From positions 103,788,001-103,852,000 of the forward strand of contig NC_091473.1 in the NCBI RefSeq assembly GCF_036971445.1: a stretch of 64,000 nt of DNA, written 5' to 3'. Under the pieces are notes generated by a model. It saw only the letters and a program-made list of their open reading frames with translations, was not told the DNA's origin and did no database searches. The stretch comes from Narcine bancroftii. Lineage: Eukaryota. Positions 179 through 6,455 of this stretch are shown piece by piece (position 1 is the stretch's first letter; every line of letters begins with the position of its first letter). Made by a program: the position numbers and the translations under genes.

Positions 179-478
179 CTTTTATTTTTTTAAAAATAAA
201 TAGTAGTTTAATTTTATTTTGAAGTGTTTATCAGCATCAGAGAAAGTTGAGTTTAGACAGGTGAAAAATCAGGTTAATCAGATATCTTGTTTTTTTTTAA
301 ATATTTTTTTATTTTTCACACTGTGAAGCTTATCAACCAAACATTTCTCATTAAATATACACAGTGGCATTTTCTCCCTTCCCCCTTTCTCTCCCTCCCC
401 TCTTCCCACCCCCCCCCCTCCAAAACCCATAAATATTCAACATATACAATACAAGAAAACCATAAAACAATATCTTCA

Positions 479-967
479 TGGGTACTTGAGCTGGCAGAGT
501 CCGCAAGCATCGAATCCATGCTGCTGAAGACCCAACTGCGCTGGGTGGGTCACGTCTCCAGAATGGAGGACCATCGCCTTCCCAAGATCGTGTACTATGG
601 CGAGCTCTCCACTGGCCACCAAGACAGAGGTGCACCAAAGAAGAGGTACAAGGACTGCTTAAAGAAATTTCTTGGTGCCTGCGACATTGACCACCGCCAG
701 TAGGCTGATATCGCCTCCAACCGTGCATCTTGGCGCCTCACAGTTCGGCGGGCAGCAACCTCCTTTGAAGAAGACCGCAGAGCCCACCTCACTGACAAAA
801 GGCAAAGGAGGAAAAACCCAACCCCAACCAACCAATTTTCCCCTGCAACCGCTGCAACCGTGTCTGCCTGTCCCACATCGGACTTGTCAGCCACCAACAA
901 GCCTGCAGCTGACGTGGACATTTACCCCCTCCATAAATCTTCATCCGCGAAGCCAAGCCAAAGAAGA
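479..967 (+). mobile_element. RTE LINE 3' fragment (copy a)
   Basis: QLRWVGHVSRMEDHRLPKI...GELSTG..RGAPKKRYKD, the C-terminal zinc finger region, and the 3' end gaagccaagccaaagaaga shared with the other RTE copies. Confidence 0.93.
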
Positions 968-1150
968 TTAACTCCTGTCCAAAATTATCCTTTAATAAAG
1001 CCTGTACTTGATAATAAGCAAATAATGAGTTTGCTGGTATTCCATATTTTTCTTGAAGACTAGTAAAAGGAAGAAACACTCCCCTCTCAAAACAATCTTC
1101 TATTGTTTTAATGCCCTTTAAGTACCTAATTTTTAAATATTGATTATTCA
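968..1150 (-). mobile_element. L1 ORF2 fragment of a different subfamily, between two RTE pieces
   Basis: Translates KGIKTIEDCFERGVFLPFTSLQEKYGI, homologous to but diverged from KGIKRIENCFLGNNLLTFEQLKDKYGI in the host L1 near 2500-2590. Confidence 0.75.
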
Positions 1151-1647
1151 TAGGTACTCGAGATGGCAGAGGCCGACAGTATCGAATCCACGCTGCTGAA
1201 GATCCAACTGCGCTGGGTAGGTCACATCTCCAGAATGGAGGACCATCGCCTTCCCAAGATCGTGTTATATGGCGAGCTCTCCACTGGCCACTGAGACAGA
1301 GGTGCACCAAAGAAGAGGTACAAGGACTGCCTAAAGAAATCTCTTGGTGCCTGCCACATTGACCACCGCCAGTGGGCTGATCTCGCCTTAACCCGTGCAT
1401 CTTGGCGCCTCACAGTTCGGTGGGCAGCAACCTCCTTTGAAGAAGACCGCAGAGCCCACCTCACTGACAAAAGACAAAGGAGTAAAAACCCAACACCCAA
1501 CCCCAACCAACCAATTTTCCCTTGCAACCGCTGCAACCGTGTCTGCCTGTCCCGCATCGGACTTGTCAGTCACCAACAAGCCTGCAGCAGACATGGACAT
1601 ACCTCTCCATAAATCTTCATCAGCGAAGCCAAGCCAAAGAAGAAAAG
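1151..1647 (+). mobile_element. RTE LINE 3' fragment (copy b)
   Basis: Same RTE segment as copy a, with a GAA-rich tail followed by the TSD aaaacaatatcttca (1648-1662; partner at 464-478). Confidence 0.93.
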
Positions 1648-1740
1648 AAAACAATATCTTCACACAAAGTAAAATGAACAAGAAAAATGTGTCATCTATT
1701 TGTTACACAGTGAATCAAGTCGTTTTGTCTTCTTATCATT

Positions 1741-4350
1741 TTAGGGGATGGAGGTCCGAGGCAGGCTCTCTCTGTTATGTTCCATGTATGGTTCCCAAAT
1801 TTGTTCAAACAATGTGACTTTATTTTTTAAATTATATGTTATTTTTTCCAATGGAATACATTTATTCATTTCCATGTACCATTGCTGTACTCTCATGTTC
1901 TCTTCCATTTTCCAAGTTGACATTATACATTTTTTTGCTACAGCTAAGGCTATCATAATGAATCTTTTTTGCACTTTATCCAATTTGAGGGCTAATTCTT
2001 TGCTTCTTATGTTACTTAAAAGAAAGATCTCTGGATTTTTTGGTATGTTATTTTTTGTGATTTTATTTAATATCTGATTTAGATCTTCCCAAAACATATT
2101 CACTTTCTCACATGGCCAAATTGCATGTATTGCTGTTCCCATTTTCTTCTTACAGCGAAAACATCTATCTGATAATGTTGGATCCCATTCTTTTAATTTT
2201 TGAGGAGTGATATACAACCTGTGTAACCAATTATACTGTATCATGCGTAACCTTATGTTTATTGTATTCTTCATAGTTCCAGAACATAACTTTTCCCATG
2301 CTTCATTTTTTATCTTTATGTTTAAATCCTTTTCCCACTTTTGTTTAGGTTTATAGTTTATTTCATCATTTTCCTTATCTTGCAGCTTAATGTACATGTT
2401 TGTTATAAATCTGTAATCACATATTCAAAGCTGCTTTCTTATGATAATCTCAGTCTGTTTCCCAATTTATCCTTTAAATAAGCTTTCAGTTGATGATATG
2501 TTATTCCATATTTGTCCTTCAACTGTTCAAATGTTAATAAATTATTTCCCAAAAAACAATTTTCTATTCTTTTGATTCCTTTTCTCTCCCATTCTCTAAA
2601 GGAAAGTTATCTATTGTAAAAGGGATTAGTGGATTTTGCATCAATATTAATTTTGGTATTTGGTAATTCATTTTTTTCATTTCTAAGTGGATCTTCTTCC
2701 ATATATTAAGTAAATGATGCAATACTGGTGAGCTTTTATATTGTACCAACTTTTCATCCCACTTATAACGTATATGTTCCGGTACCTTCTCCTCTATTTT
2801 ATCTAGCTCTATCTTGGTCCAGTCTGGTTTTTCCCTTGTCTGGTAAAAATCTGATAAATAACTTAATTGTGCAGCTCTATAATAATTTAAAGTTAAATAT
2901 AATAAAGTTTGGGAACTGCAAACCACCTTGGTTATACCTCTCTGTTAATTTATCTAATGCTACCCTTGGTTTCCTCCCTTTCCACAAGAATTTCCTTATT
3001 ACTCTCTTTAGTTCATTAAAGAATTTTGCTGTTAAGGGAATTGGTAACATTTGAAATATGTATTGTATCCTTGGAAACATGTTCATTTTAATGCAGTTTA
3101 CCCTCCCTATCAACATTAACGGTAATTCTTTCCAATGTTCTAAGTCTTCCTGTAATTTATTTATTAACGGTTGATAATTTAGTTTGTAAAAGTGGCTTAA
3201 GTTATTATCTAACCTGATCCCTAGGTATCGCATTGCTTGGGCTTGCCATTTAAATGGTGATTCTTTTTAAAATTCTGTATAATCCGCATTACTCATTGGC
3301 ATCACTTCACTTTTCTTTGCGTTGATCTTGTACCCAGATATTTCTCCATATTCCTTCTATTTCTTATGTAATTATTTTATTGATATCTCTGGTTCTGTTA
3401 GGTATACTATGATGTCATCTGCAAATAAGCTGATTTCATACTCCTCCTTTATTTTTATCCCTTTTATTTTATTTTCTATTCTTATCAGTTCTGCCAAAGG
3501 TTCTATTGCTAAGGCGAACAATGAGGGGACATCCCTGTCTAGTTGACCTACTTAATTTAAATTGGCTATATATATATCCATTTACTGTTACCTTCGCCAA
3601 TGGTCTATTATACAATGCTTTGATCCAATTAATATATTTTTCTGGTAGGTTGAACTTCTGTAATACTTTAAAATAGTAGTTCCACTCTACTCTGTCAAAG
3701 GCTTTTTCTGCATCTAAAGCAATAGCCACTGTTGGTTTCTTATTTCCTTGAACTGCATGAATTAGATTTATTAGTTTACAGACATTATCTGCTGTTCGTC
3801 TTTTCTTAATAAATCCAGTTTGATCTTGTTTTACCATTTTTGGTACACAATTGGCCAATCTGTTTGCTAATAATTTTGCTATTATTTATATTCTGAGTTA
3901 AGTAGAGATATTGGTCTATATGATGCTGGTGTTAATGGATCCTTCCCCGTCTTTGGTATTACTGTAATTATTGCTGTCTTACATGAATCTGGAAAATTTT
4001 ATGTTTCTTCTACTTGATTCATTACTTCGAGGAGAGGAGGAATTAATAACTCTTTAAATGTTTTATAAAATTCTATTGGAAATCCATCTATTATTTCCTC
4101 CTCTATTTTGATTGGTACATTTTTGTTAACTAATATGGCTACACCTCTAGCTTTTGAATTATATGATGCTGCAGCTACGTGTCCTACCCAGTCTCTCTTT
4201 AATTTGTTATGTTCCACTTCAGTTGGATGCGTTTCCTGCACAAATGCTATATCTATTTTTTCTTTCTTCAGTAAATTTAGTAGCCTCTTCCTTTTAATTT
4301 GTTTATGTATTCCATTAATGTTTATAATCATATAGTCAATGTGGCCATCT
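1741..4350 (-). pseudogene. L1 ORF2 (endonuclease-RT-zinc knuckle), frameshifted, with an endonuclease-to-RT deletion
   Basis: ORF pieces 3999-4331, 3469-3858, 2877-3233, 2564-2926 and 1741-2397 are collinear L1 ORF2 segments. Junction EEIID|GFPIEFY near 4086. Confidence 0.9.
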
Positions 4351-4799
4351 TATATCTTGCTTACGCCTCTTTTCTGCTTCCTCACCACCTCCATCCTCCT
4401 TTCTCCCATTTTCATCTTAGTTTTCCCTTTTTAATGTATGACAACACATTTAAAACATAAAATACCCCAACAGTTCCCACACCCAATAATACCTTAACCC
4501 CAAATGCTCCCCCCTCTCTGAGTTGCCCCTTATCCCTTGCCGGGCAACCACAACTCCCCTTTCCATTTGGATTGTGATCTTTCTCGCAAGTGTCAGCTGA
4601 TTTTGCAGTGATAGTTATTCCCTCTCCCCCAGCTCCCCACAGAAAACACTTATTTAATAGATATAACAAAGCTCTCTTTTTTCCTCTTACTTCCTTCCTT
4701 CCTTCCCTTCTCTTTTCCCTCTTTAGTTCTTTACATATACATTGTTTTTACATCTTTATATATATTTTATCACTGATTTTCATTCTTGTTACATCTCTT

Positions 4800-6163
4800 C
4801 ATCTCTTTTTCTGTCTTGCAAACATTCTGCGAATTCTTGTGCTTCTTCCGGATCCGAGAACAGTCTGTTTTGCTCCCCAGGTATAAATATTTTAAGCATG
4901 GCTAGATGTCTTAACATGAATTTATAACCTTTTTTCCATAAAATCGTTTTCGCTGTATTAAATTCCTTCCTCCTCTTTAAGAGTTCAAAACTTGTTTCTG
5001 GGTAAAAATGGCTTATTATCTTCTCTAACTTTGTTCCTTGTCCGTTCCAGTATATTTTCTCTTGTCGTGTATCTCAAAAATTTTACTAAGATGGATCTTG
5101 GTTTTTGATGTGTCTGTGGTTTCAGAGCTAATCCACTTTGTGCCCTTTCTATTTCCATTTATTCCTGTATTTCTGTCGTTCCCAGGACCTTCGAGATCCA
5201 TCCTTTTATAAATTCTTTCATGTCTGTGCCCTCTTCACCCTCCTTCAGGCCCACTATTTTTATATTGTTTCGCCTACTATAATTTTCCAAAATATCAGTT
5301 TTCTGAGATAACAACTCTTGTGTCTCTTTAATTTTTTTGTCACTTTCTTCCAATTTTTCTCAAGTCATTTACTTCCATTTCTACAGCCATTTCCCACTCT
5401 TCCACATACTCTACTCTTTTCCCTGTTTCTGTCATGACCAGCTCTAAACTTTGCGTTTTATCTTCTGCTCTTTTCATTTTTCTTTTAATTGGACTAAATT
5501 CTAATGACAACCATTCTTTTAATGCTCTCATTTGTTTTTCAAAAAAGGTTTTTTCTATATTCTGCCCATCTGTTTTACCTTCTATTTCTCAGTGAGATTT
5601 TGGACTTCTTCTGTGTCTGTACCTGTGTTTGTGTCTTCTTCCTTTTTTTTTCTGTGTCTCATCTATTTTTCCTGATGAGCTGCTTATATCTCTCTGCCGG
5701 GCCTCCTCTTGCTGGGCCTCTTGCTGTTGATCTTCCCCTCCTGGGCTGCCCGTCTGTCGGGCTTCCTGTTGTTGATCCTCGTCAGTTACTCTGCTGTCAT
5801 TCTCCCTCATCTGTTTCCTCGCTCCCTCCACTGCTGCCATCCTCATCCTCCTGTTGAGTGCCTGGTGTCAGGAGTCCTTCAGCTGGTCATGCTGTGGCTG
5901 CCCGCTCCACTGCTGAGACCCCCTCCCATCAGTGTTTTATTTTTCCTTTGATTGCGCACTTTTGTTTGGCTCTGAGAACCATTTTTGAAGTCCACCGGTT
6001 GTGAGGTCGCGACTCCGCAGGGCAGGCACCAACCTCAGGGATCGGGCGTTCCTCGCCACCTCAGCTCCCTATTCCTTCGTGCAGGTAAGGCCGCCTTCTT
6101 TCTTCTCTGGTGACTTTTCTTTTTTTTTCCAGTTGTTTTTACTTTCTCCTTCTTGGGTGCCAT
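4800..6163 (-). pseudogene. L1 ORF1 (transposase_22-type RNA-binding protein), disrupted
   Basis: ATG at 6163 (MAPKKEKVK), a Q/E-rich and coiled-coil-like stretch, SRRNNIKIVG, and a C-terminus LKIFIPGEQNRLFSDPEEA matching ORF 58394-58648. Confidence 0.8.
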
Positions 6164-6455
6164 CTTCTTTCTCTTCTCTGTAACTTTATCTTTTATTTCT
6201 TATATTTTTAATTTGTTGAGCTTTGTCTTTGCCTAACATTTTTTCCTTTTTTCTGGAGAGGGCTGGTTTTACCCGACCAGCCACTACTCCATCACGTGAC
6301 TCCCCCAATCAGATATCTTGTTATTTTTTTTTGTCCAATATTTTCATGAATGTGGTACATTCCAAAAAAAGGATATCAGGGATGAGTTTTATTTTCCTCT
6401 GGAGAGATGCTAGAATATTCCTAGACATCATAAATTTTCCTACAATCTTATAATG

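Follow-up and report, generated by a model that had tools for sequence, protein, structure and literature searches.

The window, that is, the whole stretch of 64,000 nucleotides from Narcine bancroftii that was analysed, holds two copies of one L1 lineage, each carrying the conserved block recorded in the initial annotation, whose positions (4518-4612 on the minus strand and 58984-59078 on the plus strand) and letters agree with ours. Both blocks sit in spacers that separate ORF1 from an endonuclease-bearing ORF2 in this lineage. Within the block lies an AUG opening a further frame, hereafter the hidden ORF. The main features, except for the hairpins, are as follows.

292..6306, minus strand: copy A, a full-length, decayed L1 of the older A-type subfamily, with a target-site duplication on its flanks
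4789..4791, minus strand: ORF1 stop of copy A; the hidden AUG follows 225 nt downstream
4564..4566, minus strand: AUG of the hidden ORF, copy A
4336..4566, minus strand: hidden spacer ORF of copy A, with its TGA end 10 nt past the ORF2 AUG
4346..4348, minus strand: ORF2 AUG of copy A
58349..59740, plus strand: copy B, 5'-truncated, of a non-autonomous, ORF1-only (ORF2-deleted) L1 family
58646..58648, plus strand: ORF1 stop of copy B; the hidden AUG follows 384 nt downstream
59030..59260, plus strand: hidden spacer ORF of copy B, with its AUG at 59030-59032 and its normal stop at 59258-59260
59105..59107, plus strand: premature stop at codon 26 of the hidden ORF of copy B, common to most of the ORF2-deleted family
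59248..59250, plus strand: relic of the ORF2 start in copy B, no longer an AUG in the ORF2-deleted family
59330..59345, plus strand: deletion junction, where the endonuclease region breaks off after its start and the 3' end of ORF2 follows, found in 3,312 exact copies

An intact relative encodes an ORF1 with a weak PF02994 match and an ORF2 with PF03372 and PF14529. In copy A itself, the hidden frame is disrupted by post-insertion indels, ORF2 carries an apparent internal deletion near 4100, and the 3' region (about 470-960 and 1170-1640, minus strand) has received two similar insertions of another retroelement's 3' end, also present in locus L031. With regard to the lineage as a whole, the end codon of ORF1 differs among subfamilies, and a tandem duplication of about 74 nt directly follows the ORF1 stop in young subfamilies (58650-58790 in the window).

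A pattern search of the 3.33-Gb genome with the first 28 bases of the block returned 7,630 matches, and the older A-type pattern returned 1,132. We read 30 loci from each pattern search (n=60), together with 24 copies found through their endonuclease protein irrespective of the motif. All 24 protein-selected copies carry the motif, 22 by pattern and 2 by eye with single changes. When the majority sequences of 10 autonomous subfamily groups (our own grouping, 3-14 copies each) are compared, 18 of 94 columns vary in the motif, vs 59 of 100 upstream and 109 of 179 downstream, in agreement with the earlier claim that the block is more conserved than its surroundings. The spacers had been described as diverged, which holds for about 60% of the flank columns, but the flanks are alignable and not unrelated.

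The block is confined to its own lineage: its sequence has no match in other L1 families, and its role is thus not cross-checkable there. A covariance model (R1) searched against 53 sources recovered the two window copies as sole matches, and the protein scan gave no match in viral contigs and two distant ones in genome contigs. The literature we covered, which leaves aside Repbase, subscription papers and supplements, yielded no report of the hidden ORF or the motif; among the supplements are those of PMC5381506, which list spacer sequences and could bear on novelty. In Rfam, ribozyme and IRES families included, no match reached the gathering score in the window and none lay over the motif at E<=10 at three loci, which accords with the by-eye statement that no hammerhead or HDV core is present. 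Other non-LTR elements carry ribozymes, and self-cleavage had been named as one function of the block. Against this, folding is weak (see below), the 5' half is kept throughout the 30 copies selected by the 3' half, 60 copies show no fixed truncation point, and cleavage here would sever the template between the ORFs. We find no support for this function and regard a self-cleaving ribozyme as extremely improbable.

The hidden AUG opens a third frame of 75-79 codons (the A and B forms differ by 9 nt), with its stop 10 nt downstream of the A in the ORF2 AUG. It is open over 75-76 codons in 14 of the 19 ORF2-bearing copies selected by motif, and over 76-79 codons in 17 of the 21 scored protein-selected copies (4 are broken, and 3 of the 24 were not scored); all nine protein-selected copies with an intact 1,269-aa ORF2 keep it open. 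Old A-type copies, which are decayed throughout, retain a long open frame in 3 of 29 cases, and the A-type relatives L057 and L064 have 79 open codons with the same end. In 11 copies picked for their open frame, the other two frames contain 5-8 stops over the same span, and the odds of such a frame arising by composition alone are about 1 in 500 by our own estimate. Taken as sequence evidence, these observations argue strongly for an open frame under selection.

The encoded peptide behaves differently from the frame. Its dN/dS is 0.6-1.4 in the 13 pairs with synonymous changes, vs about 0.1 for ORF2 (unshifted pairs), from which it follows that the frame is kept and the peptide is not. Such drift tells against the block being the start region of a functional small protein, possibly membrane-associated. 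This alternative draws on the many fish-type peptides (the loci are defined below) with a 19-residue stretch of mean hydropathy near 2, and on A-type peptides that reach 1.6-1.8; the hydrophobic stretch is nevertheless gone in the young B subfamilies (maximum 0.3), U-rich DNA yields such residues unaided, and Pfam and Atlas searches with the hidden peptide found no match. We consider it improbable.

Upstream, the ORF1 stop and the block are separated by 203-385 nt in unrearranged copies, of variable sequence and with 4-14 AUGs, and the hidden AUG itself has a weak context, with C at -3. A conserved chain of ORFs leading from the ORF1 stop to the block was sought and rejected, as no frame is conserved over this distance. 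The final 200 nt of the spacer also contain several AUGs. A conserved short ORF with its end 1 nt short of the ORF2 AUG was likewise considered and discarded, its length ranging from 5 to 36 codons.

Three hairpins can be drawn in the block.

4592..4612, minus strand: hairpin 1 of copy A, 7 bp with a 1-nt bulge and a 6-nt loop
4572..4589, minus strand: hairpin 2 of copy A, 6 bp with a variable 6-nt loop and one C.A mismatch at a CpG
4522..4548, minus strand: hairpin 3 of copy A, with a 7-bp core in the C-G state, beginning 18 nt after the A of the hidden AUG
58983..59003, plus strand: hairpin 1 of copy B
59006..59024, plus strand: hairpin 2 of copy B
59048..59074, plus strand: hairpin 3 of copy B, in the U-A state

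Hairpin 1, formed by the 5' segment, had been overlooked; its changes at subfamily level fall in the loop and the bulge. The ttgcga-N6-tc(g/a)caa hairpin proposed earlier corresponds to hairpin 2, whose loops do differ (5 of 6 loop positions vary, against 0 of 12 stem positions), although its pairing in copy A includes the C.A mismatch. The tcca-aa-tgga hairpin does not survive scrutiny, since it would need a 2-nt loop, would reach 3 bp at most and contains the AUG of the hidden ORF. Hairpin 3 varies at one pair among subfamilies, and the compensatory C-G to U-A change is real: this pair is maintained in all 38 distinct rows (29 C-G, 6 U-A and 3 U.G), drawn, like the covariation test, from 44 of the 85 grouped copies. 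One subfamily has a T>C change in the caagggataa loop, which is therefore not invariant. Covariation over the whole structure is not significant, as 45 of 500 shuffles reach the score and the signal comes from the one pair. RNAalifold recovers hairpins 1 and 3 and misses hairpin 2, and sense-strand folding z-scores of +0.2 to -1.5 in six copies are no better than shuffles. Three modest hairpins thus fit the block plausibly but remain unproven; the evidence for RNA structure is moderate and comes from variation located in loops and bulge and from one pair in three pairing states, not from significant covariation.

Three possible partners exist for the 5' arm of hairpin 3 (59048-59074), two of them inside the loop. 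Each of these three sites differs between subfamilies, and the arrangement may represent a conformational switch or a DNA palindrome.

Folding is better on the antisense strand, with z-scores of -1.7 and -4.0 in the two copies tested, which would suit a block with a role in RNP assembly, in the handling of RNA or in the minus-strand cDNA, and with an incidental AUG. The intact state of the block in the ORF2-deleted family (see below) points the same way. The U.G state, however, which marks the youngest intact subfamily, pairs on the sense strand only and is a mismatch on the antisense strand. Moreover, such a role would not explain why the frame is open, why it stops at the ORF2 start and why it is lost together with ORF2. 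We consider this role improbable.

Copy B had been read as a two-ORF L1. It belongs instead to a family in which the ORF2 start is joined to the 3' end, along with 11 of the first 30 loci (L003, L004, L016, L017, L019, L021, L024, L025 and L028-L030); the ORF2 AUG is gone in these members, which are young, very abundant and have an intact ORF1. We take this ORF1-only deletion family to resemble HAL1-type elements. The codon-26 stop is found in 10 of 12 ORF2-deleted copies, whereas none of 19 others has it, and its pattern occurs in 2,847 copies genome-wide. According to a comparison of lists by eye, 36 of the 40 first-listed stop copies have an exact deletion junction at a distance of about 218 nt. 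Five stop copies with no exact junction nearby were read individually: all five lack the ORF2 AUG, and four have a mismatched junction. The premature stop thus appears to have spread only in the 3,300-copy ORF2-less family, which offers a natural control within the same genome. This pattern is consistent with a link between the hidden frame and ORF2 and is not proof of one, because it goes back to one mutation in a master element. The block itself is unchanged in this family, where it is predicted to be dispensable, but only about two changes would be expected on a rough count, the family being young.

We propose that the block is probably a start-site element acting in the sense RNA to load ribosomes at the hidden AUG, and that the hidden ORF serves as a relay, feeding ORF2 by termination-reinitiation. 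Of the functions put forward in the initial annotation, a cis-acting element for ORF2 translation is thereby the best supported, by a route, the hidden ORF, that had gone unseen. The mechanism is inferential and is built from sequence features. Hairpins would form with two ending 5-6 nt before the hidden AUG and one beginning 14-18 nt after it, and elements so placed could hold the 40S subunit on an AUG of weak context. Downstream hairpins are known to aid AUG recognition, and hairpin 3, at +14 to +18, is proposed to act alike. Translation of the hidden frame would carry elongating ribosomes beyond the several AUGs that occupy the final 200 nt of the spacer; on terminating across the ORF2 start, they would move back about 10 nt and begin again at ORF2.

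The arrival of ribosomes at the block is the least certain step. As no conserved frame joins the block to the ORF1 stop, internal entry or hopping reinitiation may apply; the other route would be a subgenomic RNA, and this leads to the main rival, in which the block is an internal promoter at the DNA level, its spaced palindromes being factor sites, and the hidden AUG is the first of the resulting transcript, the ORF still acting as a relay. Invariant palindromes with variable spacers would also suit dimeric DNA-binding sites, and the block contains what we presume to be resemblances to CRE-half, MYB, RFX, SOX and initiator sites. CpGs are kept, a G-rich tract lies upstream, the 45 nt of motif before the hidden start are free of AUGs, and scanning to the block is made difficult by the 4-14 AUGs that follow the ORF1 stop; a YY1-like spacer motif (as described in the available text of PMC5381506) is also present in another L1 family of this genome. 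The C-G/U.G/U-A series is, on the other hand, simplest as RNA pairing, and among 60 copies no 5' end falls in the 70 nt ahead of the block, no subgenomic copy class being seen, which is weak evidence against this route. The sequencing runs, contigs of uncertain type, show no splice-type joint or end pile-up and are uninformative either way. On balance, we judge the internal promoter unlikely.

The relay arrangement was looked for in other L1 spacers. A protein-based scan of metagenome contigs gave 65 loci, of which 36 had enough upstream sequence, near-duplicates and short or distant loci being left out; removal of three lacking a recognisable endonuclease start, two lacking an AUG and one duplicate left 30 loci, labelled fish-type from their 33-55% endonuclease identity and named homologues (one pair among them is 84% alike). 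An AUG-started ORF of at least 40 codons, in another frame and with its stop within -6..+30 of the ORF2 AUG, is present in 19 of these 30. This interval was set after the data had been seen, and the same rule applied to dinucleotide shuffles, made over the whole sequence or within windows of 15-60 nt, yields 1.7-2.9 loci, with maxima of 5-8, and anchors shifted 45-240 nt upstream give 0-4. Many of the fish-type stop/start overlaps lie at -2 to +8. One decayed copy (L032) of a distant L1 family in the genome that holds the window carries an ORF of 108 codons that finishes in an AUGA overlap.

In other respects, several spacers show features of their own. A second L1 family in this genome (L031-L033, L065-L068, L140, L143 and L144) has its own conserved spacer blocks, with a UYGGG-loop hairpin, a second hairpin with a wobble variant and the YY1-like motif AAGATGGC. 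By eye, GC-rich hairpin islands are seen about 120-200 nt upstream of ORF2 in L071, L075, L082, L098, L101, L106, L112 and L117, and in these fish-type islands the loop often ends in UGGG and is followed by a G-run and a U-rich tract resembling a 3' splice site. A recurring hairpin with UG(A/C)UCC and GGAUCA arms is found in L071, L084, L088, L102 and L112, fish-type loci with otherwise unalignable spacers. L134 is an L1-like endonuclease contig of high coverage inside a bacterial MAG, and is probably eukaryotic contamination.

In its available text, PMC5381506 offers two options for ORF2 translation over an AUG-rich spacer of several hundred bases, namely, an IRES beside ORF2 or inefficient scanning. 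We advance, more tentatively and at somewhat less than even confidence, that long-spacer vertebrate L1s are tricistronic, with a peptide-indifferent relay ORF behind a structured entry site, that ORF2 is reached only by ribosomes finishing this ORF, and that mammalian ORF1-ORF2 coupling is a derived short form. A conserved relay ORF would explain the persistence of long spacers, reconcile them with the human need to complete any upstream ORF, and give exact mutations to test.

With regard to known systems, the published statements below are taken from the available parts of the reports cited. RNA elements of viruses and the ribosomal RNA itself provide several partial likenesses. Calicivirus and influenza B TURBS (PMC11921876) share the overlapping stop and start and the independence from the peptide; this candidate was rejected, as RUGGGA, which in TURBS is complementary to 18S ES7, is not in the block and UGGGA occurs in the last 100 nt of the ORF in 1 of 12 subfamily groups, stem P1 should lie 12-24 nt from the stop/start while about 170 nt separate the end of hairpin 3 from the ORF2 AUG, and the reported stop/start range is -8 to +6 while the overlap here is -10. 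The alphavirus DLP (PMC4872096) is also a hairpin downstream of an AUG, but its stem lies 27-31 nt after the AUG, vs 14-18 nt here, and the structure here is far less stable, with z near 0. The dicistrovirus IGR IRES, with pseudoknots directly before a non-AUG second-ORF start, was set aside because Rfam gave no match and the block is remote from ORF2. An HCV-like (type IV) IRES would have a GGG loop that pairs with ES7 and a pseudoknot immediately ahead of the AUG; the loop of hairpin 3 has the GGG, but downstream of the AUG, and no pseudoknot was seen. Extended pairing of this loop with 18S ES7 is weakened by the T>C subfamily and is not top-ranked, ES7 falling outside the eight best 18S duplex sites in a run on a variant rDNA copy. 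That copy (L136:2565-2589) has a C>T change in the ES7 loop and had suggested host-specific co-evolution, which was rejected because the two other rDNA copies among the three read have the standard loop.

The spacers of fish, frog and lizard L1s carry a predicted cripavirus-like IRES within 10 nt of the ORF2 AUG, for which PMC5381506, in its available text, found no shared structure. The block resembles this prediction in its region and its three stem-loops; it differs in ending about 170 nt upstream of the ORF2 AUG and in surrounding another AUG. The megabat L1 likewise has a long spacer, in which AUG removal cut retrotransposition about 3.3-fold and small ORFs were suggested to aid reinitiation; no single conserved frame or structured start is reported in the available text, whose authors state that the spacer need not keep a reading frame (PMC4072516).

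In human L1, ORF2 depends on the completion of an ORF ahead of it, whatever that ORF may be (PMC4091050; Alisch 2006, as reported in PMC4091050, PMC5972666 and PMC5381506), and in mouse L1, ORF1 overlaps ORF2 (PMC5381506). The relay model fits the human rule, the mouse overlap and the effect of AUG removal in the megabat element. L1 termination-reinitiation entails an upstream ORF with its stop close to the ORF2 start, and the hidden ORF provides one. As in human and mouse L1, ORF2 starts at the end of an upstream ORF, translated there and putatively here, whose identity is indifferent; unlike in these elements, the part would fall here to a frame other than ORF1, a short one lying in a 400-650 nt spacer and provided with a conserved start block of its own. 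SART1, another non-LTR element, couples ORF1 directly to ORF2 at UAAUG and has an RNA structure downstream of the restart site (PMC5972666, PMC10275272); a structure is predicted downstream of the start here too, but at the start of the intermediate ORF. By analogy, the block would work like the translational coupling of L1 and SART1 with an extra, disposable ORF added.
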